From: a virus
Lineage: Duplodnaviria > Caudoviricetes
Length of the DNA: 30,856 nucleotides
Strand: one strand, 5' to 3'
Virus record (IMG/VR): IMGVR_UViG_3300031647_000036
Span: 1 to 30,856 of that record
The notes beneath the pieces are model-generated. The model saw only the letters and a list, made by a program, of their open reading frames with translations. It was not told the origin of the DNA and made no database searches. Shown here one piece after another: positions 3,504 to 30,856 of the stretch. Position numbers and translations under genes: made by a program. Every line of letters starts with the position of its first letter. Positions within the stretch are counted from its first letter, which is position 1.

Positions 3504-3528
3504 ATTATTTTTTTTTGGAATAAAAAAA
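3497..3528 (-). promoter_or_regulatory. Possible leftward Bacteroidota-type promoter (-7 box TAACTTTG)
   Basis: caaagtta at 3497-3504 is TAACTTTG on the minus strand; the -33 position is only TTTT. Confidence 0.4.
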
Positions 3529-3550
3529 CCTTTTATAATAAAATATAAAA

Positions 3551-3949
3551 ATGGCAACAAAAAAGAAACTTACTAGAAGTAAAATAGTAAAGAAATTAGA
3601 TACAATATTTTCTCAATATATTAGACTGAGAAATGCAGAAAACGAAATATCCACTTGTTTTACCTGCGGAAAAGAGGACCATTGGAAAAAACTACAAAAC
3701 GGCCATTTCCAATCTCGAAAACACTATTCTACTAGATGGGACGAAACAAATTGTCAAGTTCAATGTGCCGGTTGCAATGTCTTTAAATATGGTGAACAAT
3801 ATATTTTTAGTCAAAACTTAGATTCTATTTTTGGAGACGGTACTGCACAGGAATTACAGATAAAAGCAAAGCAAATTATTAAACTAGCAGACTTTGAATT
3901 AGAAGAAATGATAATAAAGTATAAAAAACTTGTGGATGAATTAATTTAA
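3551..3949 (+). CDS. ninG: NinG/Rap-family recombination endonuclease
   Basis: LDTIFSQYIRLR, CFTCG, GHFQSR...TRWDETNCQVQCAGCN zinc/His motifs. Confidence 0.88.
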   Translation: MATKKKLTRSKIVKKLDTIFSQYIRLRNAENEISTCFTCGKEDHWKKLQNGHFQSRKHYSTRWDETNCQVQCAGCNVFKYGEQYIFSQNLDSIFGDGTAQELQIKAKQIIKLADFELEEMIIKYKKLVDELI

Positions 3950-3960
3950 AACTATATTTG
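3929..3960 (+). promoter_or_regulatory. Host-type (Bacteroidota primary sigma) promoter P1
   Basis: CTTG 3929-3932, 20-nt spacer, perfect TATATTTG 3953-3960. Confidence 0.65.
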
Positions 3961-4015
3961 CCTGTTCTGTTTTTCTAGAAGCGTGATTTCCTTAAAAAGA
4001 TTTTACGCTTTTTTT
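3961..4015 (+). ncRNA. Candidate ~50-nt trans-acting small RNA (5' CUGUUCUGUUUUUCU seed plus terminator hairpin)
   Basis: Lies between a consensus promoter and an intrinsic terminator, contains no ORF, and its 5' part is complementary to AAAACAGA(ACA) motifs at many start codons. Confidence 0.5.
3979..4015 (+). terminator. Intrinsic terminator
   Basis: AAGCGTGA...TTACGCTT stem (one G-U pair) followed by a T-tract. Confidence 0.7.
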
Positions 4016-4056: not shown

Positions 4057-4084
4057 AGATGTATTAATCTTAAAACTATAAAAA

Positions 4085-4234
4085 ATGGAACTACAGGACG
4101 AAACATTAAGGAAGAAAATTTTAAGTCTAGAGCAGCGTTTAGAGCATTCAGTATATCACGGTAATGCTTTTGAGCAAATAGCTTTAAAAAAAGAAATAGA
4201 CATTGCGAGATCAACTTTACCAAACATAAAGTAA
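4085..4234 (+). CDS. Hypothetical 49-aa protein (not in ORF track)
   Basis: MELQDETLRKKILSLEQRLEHSVYHGNAFEQIALKKEIDIARSTLPNIK; downstream of P2; stop overlaps next ATG. Confidence 0.65.
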   Translation: MELQDETLRKKILSLEQRLEHSVYHGNAFEQIALKKEIDIARSTLPNIK

Positions 4235-4344
4235 TGGATAGTGCAAAGGAAAAATACAGGGCCAAACTAGACGCTTTGTTATTACGAATTGGAATCTTAG
4301 AAAACCAATTAAAACTAGAAGAAATTAATCTTAAAAACCAATAA
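4234..4344 (+). CDS. Hypothetical 36-aa coiled-coil peptide (not in ORF track)
   Basis: MDSAKEKYRAKLDALLLRIGILENQLKLEEINLKNQ; TAATG coupling upstream, ends 1 nt before the next ATG. Confidence 0.6.
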   Translation: MDSAKEKYRAKLDALLLRIGILENQLKLEEINLKNQ

Positions 4345-4345
4345 A

Positions 4346-4897
4346 ATGAAAACAGAACAAAATTACTTACAAAATTTATCAACTCCATTATCTATTGAAG
4401 ATATTGACTTTAGGGTCCAATCAATCAATAAAGGCGGATATGCGACAATATTAGCTTATAAAGATGCTAGGGTAGACATCAAAAGACTAAACGAGGTTTG
4501 TGGGGTCCTAGGATGGAAAAGAGAACATACAAGAGACAACAGAAATTGTATTGTTTCAATTTGGGATTCTGAAAATAAACATTGGGTTTCTAAAGAAGAT
4601 ACCGGAACCGAAAGTATGGCGGATTCTCAAAAAGGTTTGGCAAGTGATAGTTTTAAACGTGCTTGTTTTAATTTTGGGATTGGAATTGAATTATATGATT
4701 ATCCTGTAATACAAATAAAACTAAATCCCGATGAATTTAAAATAGAAGGCCAAAAGGTAAAACAAACCTATAATCTTAAATTAAGAGATTGGAAATGGTA
4801 CAGCGAATTTAACGGTAATAAGTTAGTTGCAATAGCCTGCCGGGACGATAAAGGAAAAGTTAGATTTAATATCGGTACCTTTACAAAAAAATCATAA
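4346..4897 (+). CDS. Rad52/Sak-family single-strand annealing protein
   Basis: IDFRVQ...LAYKDAR...RLNEVCGVLGW...WVSKEDTGTES...KGLASDSFKRACFNFGIGIELY. Confidence 0.88.
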   Translation: MKTEQNYLQNLSTPLSIEDIDFRVQSINKGGYATILAYKDARVDIKRLNEVCGVLGWKREHTRDNRNCIVSIWDSENKHWVSKEDTGTESMADSQKGLASDSFKRACFNFGIGIELYDYPVIQIKLNPDEFKIEGQKVKQTYNLKLRDWKWYSEFNGNKLVAIACRDDKGKVRFNIGTFTKKS

Positions 4898-4992
4898 TGT
4901 TAGAATCTGATTGCTGCAACGCAGGACCTTGGAACGGTATAGACATTTGTTCAGATTGTATGGAACACGCAGATTTCACTATAGTAGAATAA
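4897..4992 (+). CDS. 31-aa Cys-rich zinc-ribbon-like peptide (not in ORF track)
   Basis: MLESDCCNAGPWNGIDICSDCMEHADFTIVE; TAATG coupling. Confidence 0.6.
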   Translation: MLESDCCNAGPWNGIDICSDCMEHADFTIVE

Positions 4993-5036
4993 AAATAATT
5001 ATTAATTAATATTAACCTAAATAAAAACAGTAAATT

Positions 5037-5351
5037 ATGAGTACATTAATCAATGCAAGTATTAGAGTAGATAAATTGCCAAAAGAAAAATTTAAAATTG
5101 GTAAAGACGGGGCCGTTTATTACGAATTAACCTTGTCAGTAAATGACGAAACAAAATTCGGGAATAATGTTTGGGTAACAGAATCTCAAACAAAAGAAGA
5201 AAGAGATGCGAAAAAAGCACGCATAACTTTAGGAAATGGAAAAGTTGTTTGGACTGATGGCACAATTACGGTTGCCGAAAGACAGGAGGAAGATTCTCCA
5301 AAGCAACAATATAACCAACCTGCAACTGTAGAAGACGATTTACCATTTTAG
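5037..5351 (+). CDS. ssb: Single-stranded DNA-binding protein
   Basis: Beta-rich 104 aa with acidic tail ending EDDLPF; follows the annealing protein. Confidence 0.75.
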   Translation: MSTLINASIRVDKLPKEKFKIGKDGAVYYELTLSVNDETKFGNNVWVTESQTKEERDAKKARITLGNGKVVWTDGTITVAERQEEDSPKQQYNQPATVEDDLPF

Positions 5352-5359
5352 TAAAATTT

Positions 5360-5386
5360 AAGGGGCTTAAAAACCCCTTTTTTTTT
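5360..5386 (+). terminator. Intrinsic terminator after ssb
   Basis: AAGGGG-loop-CCCCTT followed by a long T-tract. Confidence 0.8.
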
Positions 5387-5440
5387 ATAAATTAGTAAAA
5401 TAGACAATCCCTATTGTAAACATAAATTAAAACGGAACAG

Positions 5441-6280
5441 ATGACAGAACAACAAACAGAAGACCAAATGTTAATGGAATTAATCGAAGAAGATTGTCGA
5501 GTTGATCCAAAAGAAAAAATAGAATATCCGCCGGTATGCCTTTCAATGGGTGAGATAGTTTTAAAAGACGTAACAAAAGGCGATACTTTAATGCCCATTC
5601 CTTTAGGCACATACGGTAATTTATCCGTAATTACTGCGCCTCCAAAAACAAAAAAAACATTTTTCATTTCACTTTTAGCTTCAGTTTATTTAAGTGGTAA
5701 AAATATTTATGGGGGAAAATTAAAAGGCCATAGAGAAAACGGAAGTCTTATTCATTTTGATACAGAACAGGGAAAATATTACGCAGCTAGAGTATTCAAA
5801 AGACCGTATCAAATGGATGCAAATATCGATTCAGAAAAATACCATACCTTTGGGTTAAGAGTTTTAAACCATAAAACAAGATTACAATTTATTGAGCATT
5901 ATTTAAAAACTAAAGTAACAGAACCTAGTTTAGTAATTATAGACGGTATTGCTGATTTATGCGCAGATTCAAATAATATAGAAGAATCAAACGAAGTAGT
6001 GCAAAAATTAATGGAATGGTCAGCAAAATATAATGTTCACATTATAAATGTAATTCATCAATCATTTGGTAGCTCTAAACTTGGTACAGGTCATTTAGGT
6101 TCCTTTCTAGAAAAAAAGGCGGAAATGGTTATTAGTTTAGAATCAAATACTGTAAATCGTGATTGGGTGACGGTTAAATGTGGCAGGAGTAGAGGATACT
6201 CTTTTGAAACTTTTAGTTTTGAAGTTAATCAATTCGGGCTACCTATAATCGTAGGAGATTTGTACGACCCATTAAAATAA
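5441..6280 (+). CDS. RecA-fold P-loop ATPase (AAA_25/RepA-like helicase family)
   Basis: Degenerate Walker A APPKTKKT, IHFDTEQG, Walker B LVIIDGIAD, VIHQ, GHLGSFLEKKAE. Confidence 0.8.
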   Translation: MTEQQTEDQMLMELIEEDCRVDPKEKIEYPPVCLSMGEIVLKDVTKGDTLMPIPLGTYGNLSVITAPPKTKKTFFISLLASVYLSGKNIYGGKLKGHRENGSLIHFDTEQGKYYAARVFKRPYQMDANIDSEKYHTFGLRVLNHKTRLQFIEHYLKTKVTEPSLVIIDGIADLCADSNNIEESNEVVQKLMEWSAKYNVHIINVIHQSFGSSKLGTGHLGSFLEKKAEMVISLESNTVNRDWVTVKCGRSRGYSFETFSFEVNQFGLPIIVGDLYDPLK

Positions 6281-6284
6281 AAAA

Positions 6285-6770
6285 ATGAGTAAAGAGTTAA
6301 ATTTAATCTTTAAAAAACATCAAACGTGGATCGATATAGTTTCTACTTTTGGTGTTTCAAAAGAAACCGCTGAAGATATAACTCAGGAAATGTACATTAA
6401 AATTCACAAATCTATTTTGAAAAATGGTACAGACATAATGTACTGCAAAGAAGAAATAAATTACTATTATATTTTCAAGACTTTAAATTCAATTTTTATA
6501 GATTTAAAACGTAAAAGTAAAAACTTAGTTATGGTTAACATTGAAGATTGCGAGTATAGTTTAGATGCTCAAATTGATGTTGATTTTAACGAAACATATA
6601 ACAGGGTAAAGAAAGCGATTGGAGAATTGGAATGGTGGGACCGATTCGTTTTTGAAAATATAAACTCAGGTGAAAGTATTGCAGAATTTAGTCGTAATTC
6701 AAAAGTACCTTATTACACCGTTTATAATAATTACATAAAAACAAAAGAAGAACTTAAAAAAATAGTATAA
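6285..6770 (+). CDS. ECF/sigma-70-like RNA polymerase sigma factor (probable late sigma)
   Basis: Region 2-like AEDITQEMYIKI...FIDLKRK and C-terminal region 4 HTH (SIAEFSRNSKVPYYTV); 161 aa. Confidence 0.75.
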   Translation: MSKELNLIFKKHQTWIDIVSTFGVSKETAEDITQEMYIKIHKSILKNGTDIMYCKEEINYYYIFKTLNSIFIDLKRKSKNLVMVNIEDCEYSLDAQIDVDFNETYNRVKKAIGELEWWDRFVFENINSGESIAEFSRNSKVPYYTVYNNYIKTKEELKKIV

Positions 6771-7186
6771 TGAGATTTGAAAAACAGACAGATTTGCAAA
6801 GGGAAATGAAAGCTATAAAAGTGTTTACAGATAGTTTTAAGGGAGGTTTTATTAAATTAGGACAGAATGATATAGACTTTAGAGTTCTAGACGCAGATCA
6901 TACCGTAATAGCTTACGCTGAGGTAAAGGGAAGAAACAAAACAATGCAAGATGCTTTTCCCTTGCCAATAGCTGCTAGAAAAATTGTAAAACTTATAGAT
7001 AAAGCAAAAACAGTCGAGCCAATTGTAATTTGGGCCTGCTTAGATGGTATTATTTACGGACGGATAAAGCATTTAGGCGGAGTTTTAAAGGTGGGAGGCA
7101 GAAAACCTAGAGAACACGCAGCAAACGATATTGAAGCAATGGTTTATTATTATGAAACCGCAGACTTTAAAAAAATAAAATATTAA
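6770..7186 (+). CDS. PD-(D/E)XK nuclease-like protein
   Basis: E..IDF...AEVKGR catalytic-motif pattern. Confidence 0.6.
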   Translation: MRFEKQTDLQREMKAIKVFTDSFKGGFIKLGQNDIDFRVLDADHTVIAYAEVKGRNKTMQDAFPLPIAARKIVKLIDKAKTVEPIVIWACLDGIIYGRIKHLGGVLKVGGRKPREHAANDIEAMVYYYETADFKKIKY

Positions 7187-7220
7187 AAAAAAATATTATA
7201 AATTCAAAACTACACCACAT

Positions 7221-7619
7221 ATGAATAGCTTAGAAAAATTAATGGAGGTTTCAAAAGATTTTAACAAAGAAATGGAACTTTACGATATAAAACAAAAGGA
7301 ATACCAAAAAGAAAATAGAAATAATATTATTGAAAAAGATCAAAGAAAATCAACACCAATATTTACGGGTTGTATTAATTATTTTCCTGACGCATTAAAA
7401 GAAGTTTCTAAATGTAGTTTAGCAGGACAAAAACAACACAATCAAGGAGACAAATTATATTGGGACAAAAATAAAAGCAATGATAATACGGATGCTTTAC
7501 TTAGGCATTTAATAGATAGTGAACATACGGCACACGATACTGATGGGGTTTTGCATTTAGCGAAAGTTGCTTGGAGGTCATTAGCTACATTACAAATTTA
7601 TTTAGAAAAAAACAAATAA
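7221..7619 (+). CDS. DUF5664 / dATP-dGTP diphosphohydrolase-domain protein
   Basis: PDALKEV...G..QH...W...DALLRHL...DTDGVLHLAKVAWR motif series. Confidence 0.75.
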   Translation: MNSLEKLMEVSKDFNKEMELYDIKQKEYQKENRNNIIEKDQRKSTPIFTGCINYFPDALKEVSKCSLAGQKQHNQGDKLYWDKNKSNDNTDALLRHLIDSEHTAHDTDGVLHLAKVAWRSLATLQIYLEKNK

Positions 7620-7620
7620 T

Positions 7621-7767
7621 ATGAAACTAGGAGACACTATTTATTACATTACAAAATACACCGGTATAAAATATTTGGTTGATAAATACCATAAATATAA
7701 AGGGACCAAATGTAAATGTGATGACAGAAGAGAAACTTTAAATAAAATAAAAATTAAAAGATGGTAA
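7621..7767 (+). CDS. 48-aa basic protein with CxC motif (not in ORF track)
   Basis: MKLGDTIYYITKYTGIKYLVDKYHKYKGTKCKCDDRRETLNKIKIKRW; fills the gap exactly. Confidence 0.7.
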   Translation: MKLGDTIYYITKYTGIKYLVDKYHKYKGTKCKCDDRRETLNKIKIKRW

Positions 7768-7970
7768 AATTTGAAGAAAATGATTACAAAGATTGGGAGA
7801 AATTTAGATTGGCAACATCAGACGTTATCACGCACGTTGAATTTACATTGGTGTGCGAGTTACACTCAAAATATCACAAACATACATTTTACAAGCCCTG
7901 CACCTGCAGCCCAAAAATAGTGAAACGTTGGATTAAAGATTTGAATTTAATATTTGATAATGAGCGTTAA
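7761..7970 (+). CDS. Hypothetical protein with PCTC motif
   Basis: 69 aa, overlaps both neighbours in operon fashion. Confidence 0.7.
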   Translation: MVKFEENDYKDWEKFRLATSDVITHVEFTLVCELHSKYHKHTFYKPCTCSPKIVKRWIKDLNLIFDNER

Positions 7971-8403
7971 AAAAATTCACAAACTTGAAAAGTCTATTGT
8001 AGAAATTTTAAATATTGACGGATGGGATTTAAAACATACCGGTGAGGGTTCTACTAAATGGGATGCTGCAGGCTTTACCCCTGAAAAAAACGGTAAACGT
8101 TCAAAATGTGTTATTGAAATGAAATTCAGAAACAAATACTATGAAGAAAAAATGCTTGAAAAGGACAAATACGATTCTTTAATGGCCCTAGATAAAGATG
8201 TAATAAAACTTTATTTTGTTGCAGATACAAAAGGTAATTTTATGTATTGGTTAAACGATTTAAAACTGCCTGAGACAGTAAAAAAATATTGCCCTGATAC
8301 AACTATGTGGACCAAAAAAAGATTACTAAAAGATGTTTATTTATTAACTGAAAATATGGCCTGCATTATTAATCTAAATTTAAAAGATGAAAAAATTAAA
8401 TGA
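7960..8403 (+). CDS. PD-(D/E)XK nuclease-like protein
   Basis: ATG at 7960 preferred over TTG at 7954; E...WDA...VIEMKFR motif. Confidence 0.65.
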   Translation: MSVKKIHKLEKSIVEILNIDGWDLKHTGEGSTKWDAAGFTPEKNGKRSKCVIEMKFRNKYYEEKMLEKDKYDSLMALDKDVIKLYFVADTKGNFMYWLNDLKLPETVKKYCPDTTMWTKKRLLKDVYLLTENMACIINLNLKDEKIK

Positions 8404-8411
8404 AAAGAATT

Positions 8412-8501
8412 AAAATAGTTACTAAATAATTTGTTTATAAGTATTATTAATTGTATATTGCAGCTGTAAGCAAATAAGCATACGATTAAAAAACATACAA
8501 A
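8412..8501 (+). promoter_or_regulatory. Host-type promoter P3 cassette
   Basis: TTTG 8430-8433, N20, TATATTGC 8454-8461; homologous to 14067-14156 and 13465-13513. Confidence 0.75.
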
Positions 8502-8819
8502 ATGAAAAATTTAGAGACATTTATGAATACGATGAAACACAAAGATAGCTTAACGGTTAAGTATTTACTTGGTGATGTGTTAGGTAAATATCATTGTTAT
8601 ACTATACAGAAGTACAATGCAGAAGATGGAAACAGTAATTTCTGTATTACTAAAAAAGGCAGTTACGATTCTTACAATGTTGCATCAATTAGCAGGGGGG
8701 GCTTAAATTTATACACCTTTGATATTTTTGACAATAAATTAACGGTTAGAATTAAGTTGAAAGACTTAGAATTAATAGCTGTAAGCATAGGGGAAAATAC
8801 AACGGAAAAAACTATATAA
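8502..8819 (+). CDS. Hypothetical early protein
   Basis: 105 aa flanked by its own promoter and terminator. Confidence 0.75.
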   Translation: MKNLETFMNTMKHKDSLTVKYLLGDVLGKYHCYTIQKYNAEDGNSNFCITKKGSYDSYNVASISRGGLNLYTFDIFDNKLTVRIKLKDLELIAVSIGENTTEKTI

Positions 8820-8827
8820 TATTAACC

Positions 8828-8847
8828 GGGAGGAAAACTCCTTTTTT
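8828..8847 (+). terminator. Short intrinsic terminator
   Basis: GGGAG-GAAAA-CTCCT followed by a T-tract. Confidence 0.6.
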
Positions 8848-8860
8848 AATTCAGAACAAA

Positions 8861-8959
8861 ATGAAAAATGATAACGCAATTATGTGGGCTGACGGTACAA
8901 TTACCTTTGAAACTGCAACCGGAGAAATAATAACAACTACATACGGAGAAAATAATTAA
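8861..8959 (+). CDS. 32-aa hypothetical peptide (not in ORF track)
   Basis: MKNDNAIMWADGTITFETATGEIITTTYGENN; CAGAACAAAATG leader. Confidence 0.5.
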   Translation: MKNDNAIMWADGTITFETATGEIITTTYGENN

Positions 8960-8982
8960 TATTAATTTAAAAACAGAAACAG

Positions 8983-9165
8983 ATGAACGGATTTACAAAG
9001 TACAAGCAGAATTTAAGAATAGAAGGAAATAAAATTTGGAGTTATGCAACGCACGTTGCGACTATAGAAGGCGACAAATTAATGCAATTAGGTTATTGGT
9101 CTATGACTACTCAAAAGCATATTAATTACGCTGCAGCTGAGTTAGGTTTAAATCTAATAAAATAA
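8983..9165 (+). CDS. Hypothetical phage protein
   Basis: 60 aa; SYATHVA...WSMTTQKHIN is a pattern seen in small phage early proteins. Confidence 0.75.
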   Translation: MNGFTKYKQNLRIEGNKIWSYATHVATIEGDKLMQLGYWSMTTQKHINYAAAELGLNLIK

Positions 9166-9344
9166 TGAGAGGCAATTATAATATGCGGATTTCTGAAATG
9201 AAAACCGGCGGCTTAAAAATTAGAATTGAAAACTTAAAAACAGAAAAGGTTTCAAAGTTTGAAGTAAGTAAAAAAGCAATATTAAATGGAAAATTATTTT
9301 TTTGGAAATTTAGTTTTGCTATAAATAAAACCCTAGCCAAATGA
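9165..9344 (+). CDS. 59-aa basic hypothetical protein (not in ORF track)
   Basis: MRGNYNMRISEMKTGGLKIRIENLKTEKVSKFEVSKK...; TAATG and ATGA coupling. Confidence 0.6.
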   Translation: MRGNYNMRISEMKTGGLKIRIENLKTEKVSKFEVSKKAILNGKLFFWKFSFAINKTLAK

Positions 9345-9490
9345 AAATAAATGAAGCGTTATGGTCCGAACTACGAAAGCGAATAGAAAAGCATATTGAA
9401 GACGATGAAAATATTACAGACGTAACTATCAAATGCAAAGTCCAAGAGTCAGAGCAAAAGAATTATTTACAAATCAATTTAACCTTTTAA
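9341..9490 (+). CDS. 49-aa hypothetical protein (not in ORF track)
   Basis: MKINEALWSELRKRIEKHIEDDENITDVTIKCKVQESEQKNYLQINLTF; ATGA overlap. Confidence 0.65.
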   Translation: MKINEALWSELRKRIEKHIEDDENITDVTIKCKVQESEQKNYLQINLTF

Positions 9491-9503
9491 AAACAGATAC
9501 ATT

Positions 9504-10061
9504 ATGAAATTAGCCAAAGAAATACGTAAGACTTTAAAAACCAAATTTGTAAACCTTTTTGAGAAATCAAATAATGATACAGTACTAGCCGGTTATGTAG
9601 AATTTAAATCTGAATATTCAAAAGAAGAACACAAGGAACCTGTTGTTTCTTTAAATTATGTTTTATGGCTAGAAGACCAACTTAAAAAAAGAATGAAAAG
9701 GACGGATGAATTTAGTACAAACCTAGAAAGTCTTTCTGAAGAATATAATCAATTAGATGAAGGCTACAGTTCTTTGTCTCATTTTTATGAAGAAAAGAAG
9801 ACTGAATGTTTAGCACTTCAAGACAGATTAGCGAACGTTTACGATGAAAACAGAACTACTTATATTGCAGATACGGATTCAATTCATTGTATTGATGGTG
9901 AATTTGTAGCTGAACATTCAGACGGAAACATCCTTGTTTGGGATTGTGATAGCTTAATGCGAGACTTACCGTACATTGTGAGACAAGTTGCTGCAGAAGT
10001 TAAAAACACCTCTAAAATGAACCTTAAAATACTTCAGGAATCTTTAAATGATATAACATAA
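9504..10061 (+). CDS. Hypothetical protein with central coiled coil
   Basis: 185 aa, coupled to the exonuclease gene. Confidence 0.8.
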   Translation: MKLAKEIRKTLKTKFVNLFEKSNNDTVLAGYVEFKSEYSKEEHKEPVVSLNYVLWLEDQLKKRMKRTDEFSTNLESLSEEYNQLDEGYSSLSHFYEEKKTECLALQDRLANVYDENRTTYIADTDSIHCIDGEFVAEHSDGNILVWDCDSLMRDLPYIVRQVAAEVKNTSKMNLKILQESLNDIT

Positions 10062-10774
10062 TGATATTATTAGTCGATGCAGATAGTTTAATCTTTGCTA
10101 GTTGTTATAAAAAAAGAGAGACCCCGGAAGACGGAAAATATTATACAGAACTTTCAGACTGTAGAAATAAATTTCGAAGACAATATATGGAAATTGTAAA
10201 CCATTTAGAAAACATTTACAATATTGATAAGGTGATTACTTTTAGCGGTTCGTTAGGTAACTTTAGAAAATTAATAACCCCGGTATATAAAGCAAATAGA
10301 AGCGCGGAAGAAAGACCTCCTTTTTTACAGGAAATGCACCAATTTGTAAAGGAAGAATACGATAGTGTTTTCGGTTACGGAATTGAAACTGACGATATGG
10401 TTGCAAGATATTGGAAAAAACTTTCTACAGAGTTCGGGAGAAATGAAGTAATGATTGTCTCAATAGATAAAGACTATAAACAATTCCCTTGTTTAATGTA
10501 TAATTACCATTATAAACACAAAGAGGTTTTGGACATTTCAGAAGATGAGGCGCTTTACAATTTCTATGAACAAATGATTGCAGGCGATACTGCAGACAAT
10601 GTAAATTATTTTAAAGGTAAAGGTAAAAAATTTGCTGAGAAATATTTTCAAGATTGTCATTCTAAATATTCTTACACTAAAAAACTGTATCAATTATTTA
10701 AAGAAAAATACAAATCAAAAGCAAAAGAAAAATATTCTGAATGCTATAATTTATTAAAACTAAGAACAGATTAA
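10061..10774 (+). CDS. 5'-3' exonuclease (FEN/PIN fold, T7 gp6-like)
   Basis: LLVDADS, NFRK...YKANR, ETDD, SIDKD, GDTADN...GKGKKFA (H3TH). Confidence 0.92.
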   Translation: MILLVDADSLIFASCYKKRETPEDGKYYTELSDCRNKFRRQYMEIVNHLENIYNIDKVITFSGSLGNFRKLITPVYKANRSAEERPPFLQEMHQFVKEEYDSVFGYGIETDDMVARYWKKLSTEFGRNEVMIVSIDKDYKQFPCLMYNYHYKHKEVLDISEDEALYNFYEQMIAGDTADNVNYFKGKGKKFAEKYFQDCHSKYSYTKKLYQLFKEKYKSKAKEKYSECYNLLKLRTD

Positions 10775-10775
10775 T

Positions 10776-11327
10776 ATGAGAAACTTAAACCCTGCAGAAA
10801 TTGCAGAAAAATTAATAAAGGCTTCAGGTATAAATATATTTGAAAATACTAGAAAAAGAGATTATGTAGAAGTAAGGGCTTTAACTTGCTTTTTAATGAG
10901 GGAAAAATTAAATATGAGATTATGTTCTATTGCAAAATTCTTTCAAGATAACGGCAAGCCAATGGACCACGCAACGGTGATCTATGCGGTAAAAAATTAC
11001 CCGTATTATAAAAAAGCAAACCAAACATTGGAAAAATTAGAGTTAAGTTTTCGTTGGGAAGAAGGTTTGAACTTTGAAGAAATGGATAGAATAGAATTTC
11101 TAGAAAGTAAATTAACAACACTACAAAACAAATACGACAAACTAATAGGCAATTTAGATAATCCTCTTATAAAAGCGGTACACGATATTACAGACAGGAA
11201 ACAAATTTGGGAAATGGCAGACCAAATCGTTCTAATGAAAAAAGCGTGGAAATGGAAGTCTAAAGAATTTGTAGATAAATGCGAAGTTATAGAGGCCGGA
11301 GAAGGGATAAGTGGTTCGAGATTTTAA
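10776..11327 (+). CDS. DnaA domain-IV-like helix-turn-helix protein with coiled coil
   Basis: TRKRDYVEVR...FLMRE...SIAKFF...DHATVIYA resembles the DnaA C-terminal signature R.R...R...DHTTV.HA. Confidence 0.7.
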   Translation: MRNLNPAEIAEKLIKASGINIFENTRKRDYVEVRALTCFLMREKLNMRLCSIAKFFQDNGKPMDHATVIYAVKNYPYYKKANQTLEKLELSFRWEEGLNFEEMDRIEFLESKLTTLQNKYDKLIGNLDNPLIKAVHDITDRKQIWEMADQIVLMKKAWKWKSKEFVDKCEVIEAGEGISGSRF

Positions 11328-11350
11328 AACTAATAAAAAAATACGTTATA
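11325..11350 (+). promoter_or_regulatory. Putative late promoter L1 (YAAA-N15-CGTTATA)
   Basis: TAAA at 11325, CGTTAT at 11344. Confidence 0.55.
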
Positions 11351-11799
11351 TGATTATAGAAGTCAAAGTTTCAGACATTTACGAGAATCCGGAAAACCCT
11401 AGGACTTTAAATAAAAAAAGATTTGAAGCACTTAAAAAAAGTATTAAAGAGTTTCCGGAAATGCTCAAGATCAGGCCCATTGTAATTAGTGAGGAAAATA
11501 TTATATTAGGTGGGAATATGAGGTTTAAGGCCGTTGTGGAATTAGGATATAAAACCATACCGGTTTTGTCTGCTGTTGGCTTAAATGATGCTCAAATCAA
11601 GGAATTTGTTATAAAAGACAATGAACACTTCGGTGAGTGGGATTGGGACGTATTAGCAAATGATTGGGATCGTAAAGATTTGGAAGATTGGGGCCTTCAG
11701 GGATTTCCATTTGAAGGTGATCTAGAAGAAGAAAAAATAAAAGAAGTTGAAGAAAATAAAGAAACCTGCGATAAATGCGGACAGATTTTAAAAATATAA
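11350..11799 (+). CDS. ParB/Sulfiredoxin-like N-terminal domain protein
   Basis: NPENPR...LKKSI...RPIVI...ILGGNMR...IKDN...GEWD; ATG at 11350 preferred. Confidence 0.85.
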   Translation: MIIEVKVSDIYENPENPRTLNKKRFEALKKSIKEFPEMLKIRPIVISEENIILGGNMRFKAVVELGYKTIPVLSAVGLNDAQIKEFVIKDNEHFGEWDWDVLANDWDRKDLEDWGLQGFPFEGDLEEEKIKEVEENKETCDKCGQILKI

Positions 11800-11803
11800 A
11801 AAT

Positions 11804-11896
11804 ATGGGTATTATAGTTTTTTTGGTAGGTTTTTTGGTTGTAAAAATTGCAGCTGAAACAATAGAATATTACAGTAATAAAAAAAATAACTTATGA
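11804..11896 (+). CDS. 30-aa single-TM peptide (not in ORF track)
   Basis: MGIIVFLVGFLVVKIAAETIEYYSNKKNNL. Confidence 0.45.
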   Translation: MGIIVFLVGFLVVKIAAETIEYYSNKKNNL

Positions 11897-11952
11897 CAGC
11901 AATTTATTTTTTCATAATTTGGTTTGGTTTATATTTAATTTCTAGGGATTAA
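11893..11952 (+). CDS. 19-aa hydrophobic peptide (not in ORF track)
   Basis: MTAIYFFIIWFGLYLISRD; ATGA overlap with the previous ORF. Confidence 0.3.
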   Translation: MTAIYFFIIWFGLYLISRD

Positions 11953-11966
11953 TTTAAAATAAAATA

Positions 11967-12329
11967 ATGAACGAAAGTAGACACATAAAAAAGGAATCAC
12001 TATTAGCAGCACTCGAAAAATCTTTGGGTGTTGTTACCGTTGCGTGCAGGCAAACAGACACGCCAAGAAGCACGTATTATAAATGGCTTAAAGAAGATGT
12101 TGAATTTGCCGATCAAGTTAAAGACATAGAGAATGTAGCTTTAGATTTTGCAGAGTCACAATTACATAAACAAATACTTGCAGATTCTACAGCGGCAACA
12201 ATATTCTATTTAAAAACTAAAGGTAAAAAAAGGGGTTACATTGAGAGGCAGGAAATTACAGGAGCAGACGGAATGCCGACTAACTTTTTAATTGAAATAA
12301 TTGATAAGACCGAAGATTCAAACCAATAA
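11967..12329 (+). CDS. terS: Terminase small subunit
   Basis: N-terminal HTH (GVVTVAC...RSTYYKW), ATIFYLKTKGKKRGY; directly upstream of terL. Confidence 0.75.
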   Translation: MNESRHIKKESLLAALEKSLGVVTVACRQTDTPRSTYYKWLKEDVEFADQVKDIENVALDFAESQLHKQILADSTAATIFYLKTKGKKRGYIERQEITGADGMPTNFLIEIIDKTEDSNQ

Positions 12330-13464
12330 GGTTTTCAAACATTTAGATAATTCTTCAGCAAAAATTGTTGTTGAGCAGGGCGGAACAAGGTCCGGAAAAA
12401 CCTACAATATTTTATTGTGGATAATTTTTAAATACTGTTCTTTAAATAAAAATAAAGTAGTAACAATTTGTAGAAAATCTTTTCCTAGTTTACGTGCTAC
12501 AGTAATGAGGGATTTTATAACAATACTTCAAGAGTATAATTGTTACTCAGAAATAGCGCATAATAAATCAAATTCAGAATATAGCTTATTTGGCAATTTA
12601 GTTGAATTTATATCTTTGGATCAACCGCAGAAAATTAGGGGCCGGAAAAGGGATTTACTGTTTGTTAATGAAGGTAATGAATTGTATTATGAAGATATGC
12701 AACAATTATTATTCAGAACTCAGGACCGGATAATATTAGACTTTAATCCATCAGATGAGTTTCATTGGATTTATGATAAATTAATCACTAGAGATGACTG
12801 TGACTTTTTTAAAACTACTTACCTAGACAATCCATTTATAGAAGAATCTATAATAAAAGAGATTGAACTCTTAAAAGATACAGATGAGCAGTATTGGCAA
12901 ATTTATGGTTTAGGTGAGAGATCAGCAAGTAGAAGCACAATTTTTCAATATGTAGAAGTAAATGTTATTCCGGATGAGGCTTATTTACTTTCTTATGGAA
13001 TGGATTTTGGGTACTCTAATGATCCGACTTCACTCGTTTCAATTTATATTTGGGGCAATAATATGTATGTAAAAGAACACCTTTACAGAACGCAAATGAC
13101 TACCAATGATATTGCATCATTTTTAAGAAATGAAAAACTAGAATCAAATCCAATTTATGCAGATTCCGCAGAACCTCGTTTAATTGCAGAACTTCGCAGA
13201 ATGGGTTTTAATATTTTCCCAAGCACAAAAGGAAAAGATAGTATTAATGCAGGAATTGATTTATTGAAAAGATATAAATTACACGTATTAAAAGATTCTA
13301 CAAATGCAATTATGGAATTTAGAAATTACAAATGGAAAGAAGATAAAAGCGGAATGCTTCTAAATATTCCGGAAGACAAAAACAATCATATAATCGATCC
13401 CTGTCGTTATGCTGCATATTCTATTTTAAGCAAGCCAAACTTTGGAAAATACGCATTACATTAA
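12301..13464 (+). CDS. terL: Terminase large subunit (PBSX family)
   Basis: Walker A GGTRSGKT, FVNE, DFNP, nuclease GMDFG..NDP, ADSAEP, NHIIDPCRY. Confidence 0.95.
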   Translation: MIRPKIQTNKVFKHLDNSSAKIVVEQGGTRSGKTYNILLWIIFKYCSLNKNKVVTICRKSFPSLRATVMRDFITILQEYNCYSEIAHNKSNSEYSLFGNLVEFISLDQPQKIRGRKRDLLFVNEGNELYYEDMQQLLFRTQDRIILDFNPSDEFHWIYDKLITRDDCDFFKTTYLDNPFIEESIIKEIELLKDTDEQYWQIYGLGERSASRSTIFQYVEVNVIPDEAYLLSYGMDFGYSNDPTSLVSIYIWGNNMYVKEHLYRTQMTTNDIASFLRNEKLESNPIYADSAEPRLIAELRRMGFNIFPSTKGKDSINAGIDLLKRYKLHVLKDSTNAIMEFRNYKWKEDKSGMLLNIPEDKNNHIIDPCRYAAYSILSKPNFGKYALH

Positions 13465-13513
13465 AAATAGTTATCAATATATTTGTGTATAACTAATAAA
13501 AGCATTACATTTG
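13465..13513 (+). promoter_or_regulatory. Host-type promoter P4
   Basis: TTTG 13482-13485, N20, perfect TACATTTG 13506-13513. Confidence 0.75.
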
Positions 13514-13535
13514 TGAAGAACATAAAACAGATCAA

Positions 13536-13673
13536 ATGAAAAATACAATTAAATGCGAGGTATGCGAATGGGAAAACCACGAAGATAATTTTTGCTGCGA
13601 AGGCGAAGATTGCGGAATACCTTTGGACCTAAAAATAGAAATTAATTCTTTCGGGCTACCGGAAATAAAATAA
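13536..13673 (+). CDS. 45-aa zinc-ribbon protein (not in ORF track)
   Basis: MKNTIKCEVCEWENHEDNFCCEGEDCGIPL...; directly after P4. Confidence 0.7.
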   Translation: MKNTIKCEVCEWENHEDNFCCEGEDCGIPLDLKIEINSFGLPEIK

Positions 13674-13688
13674 ATAAAAACAGACATT

Positions 13689-13946
13689 ATGAGTAACGAA
13701 AAAACAACAGTAGAATTACTAAAAGAAAACGGGATTTATTTAACTTATAAATTGACCCATTTAAAAAATGGCTATTTAAACATTTACGAGATTGAAGCAA
13801 AAATTTGTGGTATTTCTGAATGTCGAGAAGATTCTTTATTTATTACAACTATTTCCTGCAGGCCTTTAACCAATAATGAAGAAACTTTAATGGATGAATT
13901 TGCATTGGATTTAATGGATGAATATTTAAGACCGGAGGAAAACTAA
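13689..13946 (+). CDS. Hypothetical acidic protein
   Basis: 85 aa with AAAAACAGACATTATG leader. Confidence 0.7.
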   Translation: MSNEKTTVELLKENGIYLTYKLTHLKNGYLNIYEIEAKICGISECREDSLFITTISCRPLTNNEETLMDEFALDLMDEYLRPEEN

Positions 13947-13958
13947 TAAAATTAATTT

Positions 13959-14050
13959 AAGTAGGTGTAGCTGACTGATAATACTGTCGCAGGTTTAAGG
14001 TATGGCTGCATCACTTTTTATAAGGGTACATATTACTCACGTAATCTTAA
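13959..14050. other. Intergenic structured element (long stem plus second hairpin)
   Basis: AAGT-a-GGTGTAGCTG (13959-13973) pairs with TGGCTGCATC-ACTT (14003-14016); ATTAC-tcac-GTAAT at 14032-14045. Confidence 0.45.
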
Positions 14051-14066
14051 CGAAGGTAAATAAATA

Positions 14067-14156
14067 AAAAATAGTTATCAAATAATTTGTTTATAACGTT
14101 TATTTTCACTATATTGAAATTGTTAGCAAATAAGCTATCACTTAAAAACAGACAAA
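14067..14156 (+). promoter_or_regulatory. Host-type promoter P5 cassette
   Basis: TTTG 14086-14089, N20, TATATTGA 14110-14117; homologous to P3. Confidence 0.7.
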
Positions 14157-14465
14157 ATGAGAACCAAGACAGCGGTAAAACTTTTCAAAGTAAATTCAGA
14201 ATATATTATTAGTATAACGAGCGATCATTTAGATGGGTACAGGGCAACTGAAGAAGATATAAAAAAAGTTAAAGGTTTAGGCTTAACGGATTTTTTTGAA
14301 CTTTATGACGATGACGATATGAAGTATTATTCAGGTTATGCAAACTTAGATTTAATGGCTGAAAAAGATTTAGATGAATTTGACATTTTAAACATTGGAA
14401 TGTCGCACGCCGGATGCACCTATATGAAAACTAGAAGTAAGAACGGGAAAATGGAAATGGTATAA
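14157..14465 (+). CDS. Hypothetical acidic early protein
   Basis: 102 aa; FELYDDDDMKYYSG...AGCT motif. Confidence 0.75.
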   Translation: MRTKTAVKLFKVNSEYIISITSDHLDGYRATEEDIKKVKGLGLTDFFELYDDDDMKYYSGYANLDLMAEKDLDEFDILNIGMSHAGCTYMKTRSKNGKMEMV

Positions 14466-14494
14466 TATAAACTTTTAACTTAAAATATAAAAAT

Positions 14495-14620
14495 ATGGAA
14501 TGGTATGACGATTTAAATCCGGTAGACGAAAAAGAAAACGAATGCGGAATGTGTGGAAAAGCAATTGAGGACGATAAAGATTTTTGTTCAGCCGATTGTT
14601 TTAGAGAAGATAATAGGTAG
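14495..14620 (+). CDS. 41-aa FCS-type zinc-finger protein (not in ORF track)
   Basis: CGMCGKAIEDDKDFCSADC; followed by a terminator. Confidence 0.7.
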   Translation: MEWYDDLNPVDEKENECGMCGKAIEDDKDFCSADCFREDNR

Positions 14621-14647
14621 GTATAAAATTGGGTTACTTACTTATAC

Positions 14648-24569: not shown

Positions 24570-25112
24570 ATGGCTTGTTTATTAACTACCGGTAGAAAAA
24601 TTCCTTGTAAAAGTGGATTTGGAGGTATTAAAACCGTTTATTTTGCGGATTATGGCACAATTGCCTCAATAACACTTGACGCAGACAATTTAGCAACTAT
24701 TGTTAATGGTTCACCTGCACCTGTTTGGTTTGAATATAATGTTAAAGGGGCTTCTAGTCTTGAAACTACTGTTACCTCTAGTAGAGATAATGGTACGACA
24801 TTTTATACCCAAACATTAAATTTAACATTAACTTTCTTAGACTCTAAAACGCAAGCAGAATTGCAATTACTTGCAGTATCTAGACCTTATGCGGTAGTTG
24901 AGGACTACTACGGTAACAACTTCCTTTTGGGCCTTGAAAATGGTATGGAATTAACGGGGGGAACAGTAGTGACAGGAGCAGCTGCAGGAGATTTAACAGG
25001 TTTCACTTTGACGTTCGAAGGAATGGAAGAAAGAGCGCCTTATTTCTTAGCGGCAGCAGTTACGCCTTCAACAGATTTAATTGACCCAACACCTGCCGGA
25101 GTACCTGCTTAA
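24570..25112 (+). CDS. Major tail tube protein (probable)
   Basis: 180 aa, Thr/Gly-rich beta protein; GTTFYTQTL, GFTLTFEGME; has its own terminator. Confidence 0.7.
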   Translation: MACLLTTGRKIPCKSGFGGIKTVYFADYGTIASITLDADNLATIVNGSPAPVWFEYNVKGASSLETTVTSSRDNGTTFYTQTLNLTLTFLDSKTQAELQLLAVSRPYAVVEDYYGNNFLLGLENGMELTGGTVVTGAAAGDLTGFTLTFEGMEERAPYFLAAAVTPSTDLIDPTPAGVPA

Positions 25113-28368: not shown

Positions 28369-28484
28369 TTTACAAACCAAAAGAAAAAACTTTAGAAAAG
28401 CTAAGGGCTTATTTGAAAAAAAAGAATAGCATTAATAAATCAATAAATAAAACAAAAAAATTAAAGAATGGCAACTCTATTTAA
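28365..28484 (+). CDS. 39-aa Lys-rich peptide (not in ORF track)
   Basis: MIYKPKEKTLEKLRAYLKKK...; ATGA overlap. Confidence 0.45.
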   Translation: MIYKPKEKTLEKLRAYLKKKNSINKSINKTKKLKNGNSI

Positions 28485-30856
28485 TACTAAAATATCTGCT
28501 ACTTACGAGGGCTTATTAAAAACCATTGACAATGCGGCTATTTCTGCAACGTTAAGGGAACTTACAGATGGTTCGGGAAATCAATCAGGTTTGTTTTTAA
28601 ACACATCAGGGGACTTTAAAGTTACAAGTGTACTAGAATGGGGTTCGCTTAAAGATACAGGTACAGGGGTTACGATTACACAATTTGTAACTGCTGCAAA
28701 TGGTATTGAAAACTTTAATAATGATACAACACTACCGACAAGTGCTGCGGTAAAATTATACGTAGACACTAAATTTGCTACATCAGATACTTTACAGGAA
28801 GTTTTATCTTTTGGAAACACAACAAGCGGAAATAATATTGTAGTTTCTGCAAGTGATGACATTACGTTTACTGATTCAAGCAAAGCGTTATTTGGAAGTA
28901 GTCAAGACTTAGAAATTAACCACAATGGAACGGATAGTTTTGTTACTGACTTAGGAACAGGTGATTTAAGATTAAGAAGCGATAATTCTGTAAAAATTCA
29001 AGCCTCAACAGGTGGTAACAATTTAGCTACATTTACAAAGGGTTCAGGTGTCGATTTATATTTTAATAATGCAAAGAAATTAGAAACTACAAATACAGGT
29101 ATTTCAGTTACAGGAATAATATCAAATTTAACAAATCCAATTGATGCTCAAGATGCTGCAACAAAATCGTATGTAGATGCTTTAGATGCAGGAAGTGATT
29201 TGGATATAACAGATGGTACAACTACAGGTGATGTAAACTTAAACACTCAAACGTTAAGCATTTTAGGAACTACTAATGAAATAGAAACGGTAGTAAGTGG
29301 GCAAGGTGTAACGATAGGTTTACCAAGTTCAATAAGTACTGACTTAGTTGGTAATGTTACAGGAAACTTAACAGGAAATGTAACAGGCGATTTAACGGGG
29401 AATGTAACTTCAACTTCTGTTCTTGCTAATGGAGTTACAGCAACAACACAAGCATCAAATGATGACTCAACAAAAGTAGCAACAACTGCTTATGTAAAAG
29501 GCTTAGATAATGCTTCTGATTTAGATTTTAGCGGAGATAGTGGAAGTGGGGATGTTAATTTAAACACACAAACTTTAGCGGTAACAGGTACAACAAATCA
29601 AATAGAATCGACTGCATCTAATCAAGGGTTGAATTTAAAATTTCCAACCGCAGGAGTTACTTTACCGAATGGTTCTTTAGCTACTACACAATCGGCAGGA
29701 GATAATAGTACAAAAATTTCTACTACTCAATACGTAGATAGTTCTGCAGCTTTGTATTTACCTTTAGCAGGTGGAACAATGAGTGGAAACACTATCCATA
29801 ATGATAACGTAAAGTCTGTTTATGGAACAGGTAGCGATGCTCAGGTTTATCACGATGGTTCTAATTTTTATGCAAATAATACAACAGGTCAATTAAATAT
29901 AGACCAATCGGCAGTAACACAATCAATAGTATTTAAAGTATCAAATGCAAATGCTCTAGATACAACTGCATTGATAATCAATAGAGAAGGAGATTTAATT
30001 ACAGGTAAAGATGTAACCATTGCAGGAGACCTAACAGTAAATGGAACGACTACAACGGTAAATTCACAGACTTTATCAGTAGATGACCCTCTTATATCAC
30101 TTGCAATTAATAATGCCGCAAATAGCCTTGATATTGGTTATTACGGTAAATACAATGACGGTACTACAAGGTATTTAGGTTTATTCAATGATGCTTCAGA
30201 TAGTAATAAATTCAAGTTATTTAGAGGTACAACAGTAGAACCTACAACGACAGTTAATATTGGCGGTGCAGGATATTTAGCAGCAGATTTAGTTGTAGCA
30301 GGATTAGAAGGAACTTCAGTAGTTTCAACAGGAAGTATAATTGCAGCATCAGGCAATAGTGGGCAAATTACATTATCTGCAAATTCAATAGGAAGTACTA
30401 ATAATCTTGTTATTTCAACAGCAGGTGGAGGTTCTAATATTGAGATGTATAATACTGAAATGTATTTTGATGGGAATACACAATATTTTAGACCTGCAAA
30501 TGCATCATCAACATATTTAACTCTTAATTCTACAAGTGCAACTTTTGCAGGAGATGTAACAATAGAAACAGGAATTGATTTAGAAAGCGGAACTTTAGTA
30601 ATTAAAAATTCCACAGGCGATGCTAGTGGTTTAAAAATATTTCAAGATTCATCAGATGCTTCTAAAATATACAACAATTATAATGGAACACTACAATTAG
30701 GTACTAATAATGTCACAAGGTTAACCATAGATTCAACAAGTGCAACTTTTGCAGGAGATGTAATAGTTCAAGGGACAAGTGCAGCAGGGTATGTAAAATT
30801 ATCAGGAGATGGGAATGGAGCAATTTATACCTCTAATGGAGATATGCAGTTTTTTA
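28468..30856 (+). CDS. Tail fibre, N-terminal part (3'-partial, absent from ORF track; joins 145..2057 to give ~1430 aa)
   Basis: ATG at 28468 (MATLFNTKISATYEGLLK...), open to the window end; DAATKSYVD, GNVT repeats, STKVATTAYV, YLPLAGGTMSG; in frame with the window start through the overlap. Confidence 0.9.
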   Translation, partial: MATLFNTKISATYEGLLKTIDNAAISATLRELTDGSGNQSGLFLNTSGDFKVTSVLEWGSLKDTGTGVTITQFVTAANGIENFNNDTTLPTSAAVKLYVDTKFATSDTLQEVLSFGNTTSGNNIVVSASDDITFTDSSKALFGSSQDLEINHNGTDSFVTDLGTGDLRLRSDNSVKIQASTGGNNLATFTKGSGVDLYFNNAKKLETTNTGISVTGIISNLTNPIDAQDAATKSYVDALDAGSDLDITDGTTTGDVNLNTQTLSILGTTNEIETVVSGQGVTIGLPSSISTDLVGNVTGNLTGNVTGDLTGNVTSTSVLANGVTATTQASNDDSTKVATTAYVKGLDNASDLDFSGDSGSGDVNLNTQTLAVTGTTNQIESTASNQGLNLKFPTAGVTLPNGSLATTQSAGDNSTKISTTQYVDSSAALYLPLAGGTMSGNTIHNDNVKSVYGTGSDAQVYHDGSNFYANNTTGQLNIDQSAVTQSIVFKVSNANALDTTALIINREGDLITGKDVTIAGDLTVNGTTTTVNSQTLSVDDPLISLAINNAANSLDIGYYGKYNDGTTRYLGLFNDASDSNKFKLFRGTTVEPTTTVNIGGAGYLAADLVVAGLEGTSVVSTGSIIAASGNSGQITLSANSIGSTNNLVISTAGGGSNIEMYNTEMYFDGNTQYFRPANASSTYLTLNSTSATFAGDVTIETGIDLESGTLVIKNSTGDASGLKIFQDSSDASKIYNNYNGTLQLGTNNVTRLTIDSTSATFAGDVIVQGTSAAGYVKLSGDGNGAIYTSNGDMQFF
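30742..30856 (+). repeat. 115-bp exact direct repeat of 30..144
   Basis: Direct comparison of the two ends. Confidence 0.95.

Follow-up and report, generated by a model that had tools for sequence, protein, structure and literature searches.

Behind ninG, the phage genome analyzed here carries a short promoter–terminator unit that is probably a stand-alone gene (3964–4015) for a trans-acting small RNA of ~52 nt. As judged from its sequence, this RNA would be made from a predicted host-type promoter and would block, by pairing, the translation of several of the phage's own presumed early genes, whose start regions share a short tag complementary to its 5' seed. We infer that the unit is transcribed as a discrete RNA and that the pairing takes place in the cell. 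The core claim of the first-pass annotation, namely one trans-acting RNA with a common tag at many early starts, is supported by tag enrichment, conservation of the unit and seed/tag covariation among relatives.

The window (the whole stretch of 30,856 nt that was analyzed) is the entire record G000 and represents a near-complete phage genome. Its ends overlap within a repetitive tail-fibre-like gene, though the overlap does not begin at base 1: the ORF exits at 28465–30856 and continues in 1–2057, and the end overlap is imperfect (122/144 bases), so repeat units of this ORF may be missing. All curated genes lie on the plus strand, in the order endolysin, holin and ninG, then Rad52/Sak, an ssb-like gene, an AAA_25 ATPase, a sigma-like gene, an exonuclease, a DnaA-type HTH gene, ParB, terminase and the structural genes; the label 'early' is assigned from position and annotation. 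Between the terminase and structural genes, at 13536–14630, there is a cassette of small genes, presumed to be early, that have tags and host-type promoters. A host among the Bacteroidota is suggested by the TAnnTTTG promoters and A-rich leaders, by the occurrence of relatives in genome bins of Flavobacteriaceae, and by Nonlabens phage P12024S, a cultured but distant relative whose major capsid protein is 24% identical. A Pfam search with the sigma-like gene returned no match. The motif CGTTAT is found 6–16 nt 5' of the late-gene ATGs at 11344, 14713, 21970, 22776 and 25202, and may be the promoter that the phage sigma-like protein recognizes; the late genes of P12024S have a similar CGTTAAT.

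No integrase was found among the phage proteins scanned, and no integrated prophage among the relatives present in three genome contigs (≤31 kb) and in 2/401 host-family genomes; classical lysogeny is therefore unsupported, and a plasmid-like carrier state is possible. The earlier remark that the phage has no recognisable repressor requires a caveat, as a Bac_DnaA_C HTH protein is encoded at 10776–11327 (the family is present in 58 loci) and four predicted early promoters overlap or adjoin DnaA-box-like 9-mers (4032, 8432–8440, 13484–13492 and 14088–14096). Such 9-mers occur at 46/80 first early promoters versus 4/80 sRNA promoters, in a comparison made without composition matching. Control of early transcription by a protein repressor or by host DnaA is possible.

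The unit comprises, in this order, a promoter, a free U-rich 5' stretch, a hairpin and a T-tract reaching 4015, and contains no ORF; its promoter is placed in the last ninG codons and just past the ninG stop (Table 1). Since the TAnnTTTG box of F. psychrophilum is reported at −12..−5 (PMC9723704), the predicted transcript begins at 3964–3965, at the first seed base. None of 200 shuffled sequences matches the −12.5 kcal/mol of the hairpin. The first-pass annotation had cautioned that this hairpin may simply terminate ninG. Indeed, the hairpin and the T-tract behind the gene have the make-up of an intrinsic terminator, which accounts for the 3' half of the unit, but not for the promoter, the seed or the covariation. 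An Rfam scan with 4,227 families gave no match in the unit region at E up to 1, and the sole hit in the entire window was a sub-threshold Phe_leader at 25108. Two other readings of the region were rejected: a leftward gene with the seed as its own leader, as a reverse ATG exists only in TACATTTG boxes, and a protein decoy, since the RNA is antisense to the tag.

Table 1. Features of the predicted small RNA unit, its candidate target sites and two genes of reference in the window
Feature	Position	Strand	Details
ninG (NinG/Rap endonuclease)	3551..3949	+	Pfam NinG E 1.7e-11; PHROG 5034
Predicted Bacteroidota housekeeping promoter (−33/−7): TTG 3930–3932, 20-nt spacer, TATATTTG 3953–3960	3930..3960	+	
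Predicted 5' end (3964–3965) and single-stranded seed GTTCTGTTTTTCT	3964..3976	+	unpaired probability 0.91–1.0, stand-alone RNA
Hairpin and T-tract, predicted intrinsic terminator common to the unit and ninG	3977..4015	+	−12.5 kcal/mol, z −3.6
Site over start of first early gene (4085, 49 aa)	4084..4102	+	12 bp with G-U pairs and a 2x2 loop, −14.0 kcal/mol
Site, codons 1–5 of Rad52/Sak	4346..4359	+	10-nt perfect complement, −13.5 kcal/mol; Pfam Rad52_Rad22
Weak site before ssb-like gene, may be chance	5023..5030	+	8 nt, −6.6 to −7.8 kcal/mol
Three overlapping/adjacent sites at AAA_25 ATPase start (5441)	5429..5461	+	−12.6 kcal/mol
Sigma-70-like gene, candidate late activator, non-target	6285..6770	+	ESM Atlas feature score 0.99 to clusters named sigma-70 family
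Site, codons 4–7 of PDDEXK gene (6770)	6779..6788	+	10-nt perfect complement, −12.1 kcal/mol
Double site before gene 8983	8969..8983	+	10-nt perfect complement
Site before gene 9504	9489..9497	+	9-nt perfect complement
Weaker site before DnaA-type HTH gene (10776)	10762..10770	+	−8.7 kcal/mol; strict rule 0/48, not conserved
Site before gene 13536, first after predicted early promoter	13524..13531	+	8-nt perfect complement
Site before gene 13689	13676..13684	+	9-nt perfect complement
Site before gene 14157, first after predicted early promoter	14144..14152	+	9-nt perfect complement

Using four viral scans, we collected 151 sequences with a ninG hit including the window, of which 102 remained after duplicate removal. 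Three distant gut-type ninG loci (L027–L029, 35–39% identity), from which the unit is absent, were dropped before counting, leaving 99 family loci. All 99 possess the box, the U-rich stretch, the hairpin and the T-tract behind ninG. The box is exactly TAnnTTTG in 83 of them and a TTG is located 19–21 nt 5' of it in 96, while the distance from the ninG stop to the box varies from 10 to 19 nt; the box count is biased, as the script took the best TA-starting 8-mer near the stop, and the TTG falls in ninG codons. The 5' stretches of the relatives begin with three or four variable bases, followed by the conserved seed, and at least 10 of 12 seed bases are predicted to be unpaired in 75/99 loci. The stem sequences are unlike each other and yet all fold (mean −14.7, weakest −8.6 kcal/mol). 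RNAalifold with 16 sequences produced a register-slipped stem with double changes in 2/9 pairs, so the support for the hairpin comes from the individual folds. A held-out set of 81 further loci (49 duplicates, one too short and 31 new) contained the unit in 31/31 new variants, in one of which the box was mis-picked by the script. Therefore, the unit is conserved in relatives, a point on which the first-pass annotation had made its proposal depend.

A strict scan did not find the unit in 25 other loci, comprising 21 Rad52 loci outside the ninG set, three capsid loci and P12024S. Some clades (L005, L006, L009, L010, L012 and L108–L111) are characterized by a longer RNA of 70–88 nt, mostly with an extra hairpin, or by HTH_17 as the first early gene. 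P12024S has a box, a U-rich stretch and a strong hairpin behind its holin gene (L178:10174–10246), as well as a 12-nt complement before gp24. The pairing of this unit is not better than that of shuffled seeds (p 0.25 and 0.70), and P12024S was left out of the family; its unit could be a tractable distant analogue or a mere leader.

All 16 motifs listed by the first-pass annotation are present in the window where it had placed them. In windows of −25..+20 around the start codons, AACAGA occurs at 9/24 presumed early versus 0/21 late starts (Fisher p 0.0015; shuffle control: mean 0.84, maximum 7 in 3,000), hence the proposed enrichment of early over late starts holds against an A-rich background. 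In windows of −22..+18 the motif is found at 8/24 early, 0/21 late and 4/285 Flavobacteriaceae starts, the last being crude ORF calls in ~350 kb of two genome bins. By comparison, AAAAA alone (19/24, 14/21 and 123/285, respectively) does not separate early from late genes. Of the 30,844 12-mers on the plus strand, the one at 3966 is the most complementary to early starts; the seed also performs better than shuffled seeds in this genome (p 0.008). The predicted seed–tag duplexes consist of few base pairs, rich in A-U, and range from −8.5 to −14 kcal/mol. The strongest of them is formed at the start of the first early gene (4085), one of two sites missing from the first-pass annotation, the other being AACAGA before 10776. 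Conversely, the sites at ssb (5023) and 8861, previously listed among the targets, give only weak predicted duplexes (−7.8 and −8.4 kcal/mol), and just 1/66 relatives have a hit in the ssb family.

To classify the targets across the family, we required an 8-nt perfect complement of the seed with two G/C. By this strict rule, targets include 72/163 promoter-proximal genes (44%) and 150/1,355 internal genes (11%), as compared with 3/44 genes that have the late-type motif and 4/675 upstream genes. The families hit include the first early gene (33/66), the ATPase (21/71) and the 8983 family (17/24), along with small accessory genes; no hits were found for the sigma-like gene (0/75) or the terminase subunits (0/24 and 0/27). 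Long loci contain from zero to eight strict targets (mean 3.2), with none in 5/50. The recombinase slot alternates between Rad52, ERF and an unnamed 133-aa family (L002–L021 versus others), each tagged in some genomes (3/9, 4/14 and 9/57). Thus, the RNA appears to read a subset of genes, chiefly the first genes of units, and the proposal that the whole early/replication regulon is silenced was too wide.

We further analyzed seed/tag covariation, which gave the most telling result, in 82 loci with at least 10 downstream genes, which collapsed to 68 after removal of near-copies and contain 36 distinct seeds. ATG ORFs were called by a simple script, and every seed was scored against the starts (−22..+18) of each genome. 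The genome's own seed beats foreign seeds at downstream starts in 59/68 genomes (mean z −1.11; 0/20,000 permutations) and is not favoured in the other nine, whereas at the upstream late genes used as a control there is no preference (own-seed z +0.08, p 0.70; 52 loci). This locus-level test makes no use of seed classes, and it substantiates the covariation that the first-pass annotation had proposed to look for. When seeds are grouped into nine classes, the diagonal arrangement is equalled by 22 of 362,880 orderings; both the classes and the contrast motifs below were defined post hoc, after seeing the data, and the relatives are not fully independent. A quick tree of the ATPase (86 rows) shows members of the common seed class scattered and places the derived classes on branches of their own. 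The genome analyzed here belongs to class A.

The clearest contrast with neighbouring common-seed clades is provided by class F (L108–L111; seed GTAAGTTTTT), which has AACTTAC at 9/48 versus 0/94 starts and AACAGA at 0/48 versus 22/94. Classes D and E likewise show reciprocal tag shifts in both directions, whereas classes C, H and B are significant one way only, their weak contrasts being p 0.087 for C, p 0.26 for the loss of the A motif in H and p 0.79 for B. The first codons of the ATPase track the seed class: in class F they encode K-K-L-T and form a 12-nt perfect complement, and in four class E genomes a threonine codon is ACT where most relatives use ACA. The held-out set shows the same trend, with strict sites at 19/153 downstream versus 2/135 upstream starts. 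Blind k-mer enrichment placed the seed complement at the top in classes B and F and in the top ten in A, D, E and H, but outside the top ten in C and G, a ranking confounded by orthologue repeats. The first-gene leaders of class D (L225, L237, L238, L240 and L253) pair with both seed ends and leave the middle looped out, which suggests a bulged pairing overlooked by the strict rule.

The orientation and position of the tags, together with their placement in predicted leaderless genes, favour pairing between RNAs. Perfect AACAGAAC was found at 80/769 starts in 32 gene families versus 1.8 expected (50 common-core loci). Within start regions AACAGAA has 181 sense and 0 antisense copies, compared with 165 and 34 outside them. 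Among 62 sites 5' of promoter-proximal genes, 48 begin at −12..−9 and thereby cover adenines equivalent to A-12 and A-13, which stimulate translation in F. johnsoniae (PMC6847099). In the ATPase gene a −7-like box ends 3–5 nt before the ATG in 33/61 distinct starts (e.g., in relatives L050, L065 and L085), hence the mRNA is predicted to be leaderless, and in these cases the tag is located in the first codons. The site positions are only somewhat more tightly tied to the AUG (SD 4.6 nt) than to the predicted transcription start (SD 8.1 nt). In a comparison aimed at G-U wobble, C>T and C>A variants are equally frequent (27 each) and A>G variants are few, which lends the pairing no further support.

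Several other explanations of these observations were considered. The seed might belong to the ninG mRNA and act from its 3' end, either in place or as a cleaved fragment, with the same targets and pairing and with ninG timing. The unit hairpin is the first terminator behind ninG, and an RNA-library contig of one relative covers ninG, the seed and part of the hairpin (3522–3984), though a contig shows no single transcript. We nevertheless regard this origin as unlikely, given that the −7 box and the TTG 19–21 nt upstream are kept while their distance to the stop varies, that the seed begins at the predicted transcription start, and that in the ninG context it is predicted to be buried (unpaired 0.29 versus 0.90, lower in 85/85; 0.39 in a generic coding window). 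It is quite unlikely that the RNA serves as a guide acting with a protein in cleavage, termination or activation at tagged 5' ends, rather than by plain ribosome occlusion: Cas-like, TnpB-like and Argonaute families were not found among the 31 and 41 proteins scanned, which represent part of the ORFs, and the sites sit on known positive determinants of initiation. Such a role would fit the predominance of promoter-proximal targets, the weakness of duplexes that may need a helper, and the precedent of the P4 CI RNA, which causes termination by pairing (PMC4825925); Bacteroides is described as lacking an obvious Hfq or ProQ (PMC7366714).

Alternatively, the tag could be bound as double-stranded DNA by a phage protein whose specificity drifts; the seed would then be one inverted copy of this site, and the hairpin would serve only to end ninG. 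A shared protein site would likewise covary within genomes, many tags are near early promoters, and the equal C>T and C>A counts are compatible with it. However, the complete sense bias in start regions, the presence of tags in the opening codons of genes that are internal or predicted to be leaderless, and the location of the sole inverted copy at the predicted +1 of an ORF-less promoter–terminator unit in every relative make this a very improbable reading. Least credible is a chance match between A-rich Bacteroidota leaders (PMC6847099) and the U-rich flank of an ordinary ninG terminator, as might be suspected from the similar unit of P12024S, which pairs no better than shuffled seeds. The rarity of AACAGA at host-family starts, the excess of perfect AACAGAAC and the specificity of covariation for downstream genes contradict it, and for the ninG-unit phage family chance is already refuted by covariation, enrichment and clade contrasts, unless the covariation vanishes with curated starts.

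Most of the known regulatory RNAs of phages have a single phage gene or operon, or else host mRNAs, as their targets. By sequence and conservation, the unit described here has the attributes of a trans-encoded sRNA: its own promoter and intrinsic terminator without an ORF, a conserved seed predicted to be single-stranded (mean unpaired probability 0.90), and short complementarity to several distant initiation regions that is kept by compensatory change. The closest mechanistic parallel is GibS of Bacteroides thetaiotaomicron, which represses mRNAs without Shine-Dalgarno (SD) sites via a single-stranded 5' seed over the start-codon region (PMC7366714), so such pairing can work on SD-less mRNAs. 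GibS differs in being host-encoded and in having a 30–50-nt seed region and two verified direct targets (PMC7366714), whereas the phage RNA is phage-encoded, is ~52 nt long, reads a tag common to the phage's own genes, and changes its seed and tags together.

In purpose, the phage RNA resembles P1 C4 and P4 CI, without being a member of either family: neither matched the unit in the Rfam scan described above, and its targets, rather than sharing an operon with it, are spread over several predicted units beyond the terminator (4085 to 14157). C4, an RNA of phages P1/P7, likewise uses short pairing to repress phage genes, but it controls one operon, c4-icd-ant, in which C4 itself sits (PMC8198154). 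P4 CI is an RNA that silences the phage's own replication genes, but it arises by processing of a primary transcript and acts by termination, via the flanking seqA and seqC (PMC4825925). The phage RNA, in contrast, has a predicted promoter of its own, which argues against its being cut out of a longer precursor, and it is directed at translation starts. Other phage RNAs (sar, OOP, aQ, STnc6030, PreS, VpdS and 24B_1) also tune lytic development, lysogeny or superinfection exclusion, but in the accessible part of PMC12197685 they either work in cis as antisense RNAs of a single gene or target Hfq or host mRNAs, and none is described as reading a tag common to many phage start codons. No description of the unit/tag system was found in the openly accessible literature searched. 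Six supplementary files of PMC10690425 contain no seed match; the hairpin may have been catalogued without function in that work, whose IMG/VR alignments probably lie outside the searched files. One preprint (10.64898/2026.09.22.753630) was set aside as unrelated, judging from its accessible part.

The available transcript data consist of four RNA runs (shares 0.05–0.13) with assembled contigs of close relatives, which carry no start, end or strand. In the mechanism that we propose, host polymerase would make the RNA from phage entry onward, and its free 5' seed would pair over the tags at early-gene start regions. This pairing would exclude the 30S subunit from tagged starts, as the sites cover the A-rich −14..−11 determinant, the AUG or the first five codons. 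Because the targets are mostly first genes, their blockage would result in polar damping of whole early units. The accumulating RNA would thus work as a delayed brake on first-wave genes, its most likely role, and would spare the sigma-like gene and the late genes with CGTTAT, as expected for an early-to-late brake.

A superinfecting phage that shares the seed type would be silenced by this RNA as well. P1 and P7 owe their heteroimmunity to differences in the seed. The joint change of a seed and multiple tags suggests selection for escape from silencing by relatives: repeated seed switching costs many tag changes and is easier to explain if the switch frees a phage from its kin. It can be speculated, as a tentative and broader picture, that a widespread family of marine Bacteroidota phages bar-codes the starts of its first-wave genes, including leaderless first codons, that one 50-nt RNA reads the code, and that seed and code switch together between clades to define RNA-coded immunity groups, combining repressor-free early shut-off with exclusion of same-seed superinfection.

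In the system described here, a single minimal RNA seems to govern a scattered phage regulon through a common tag, in a phylum whose mRNAs lack Shine-Dalgarno sites. If true, this would answer how phages without a CI-type repressor shut off their early genes. The family would also provide a naturally occurring set of orthogonal RNA/tag pairs. The mechanism can thereby be tested directly by swapping, and such pairs may serve as compact translational repressors in Flavobacteriaceae.
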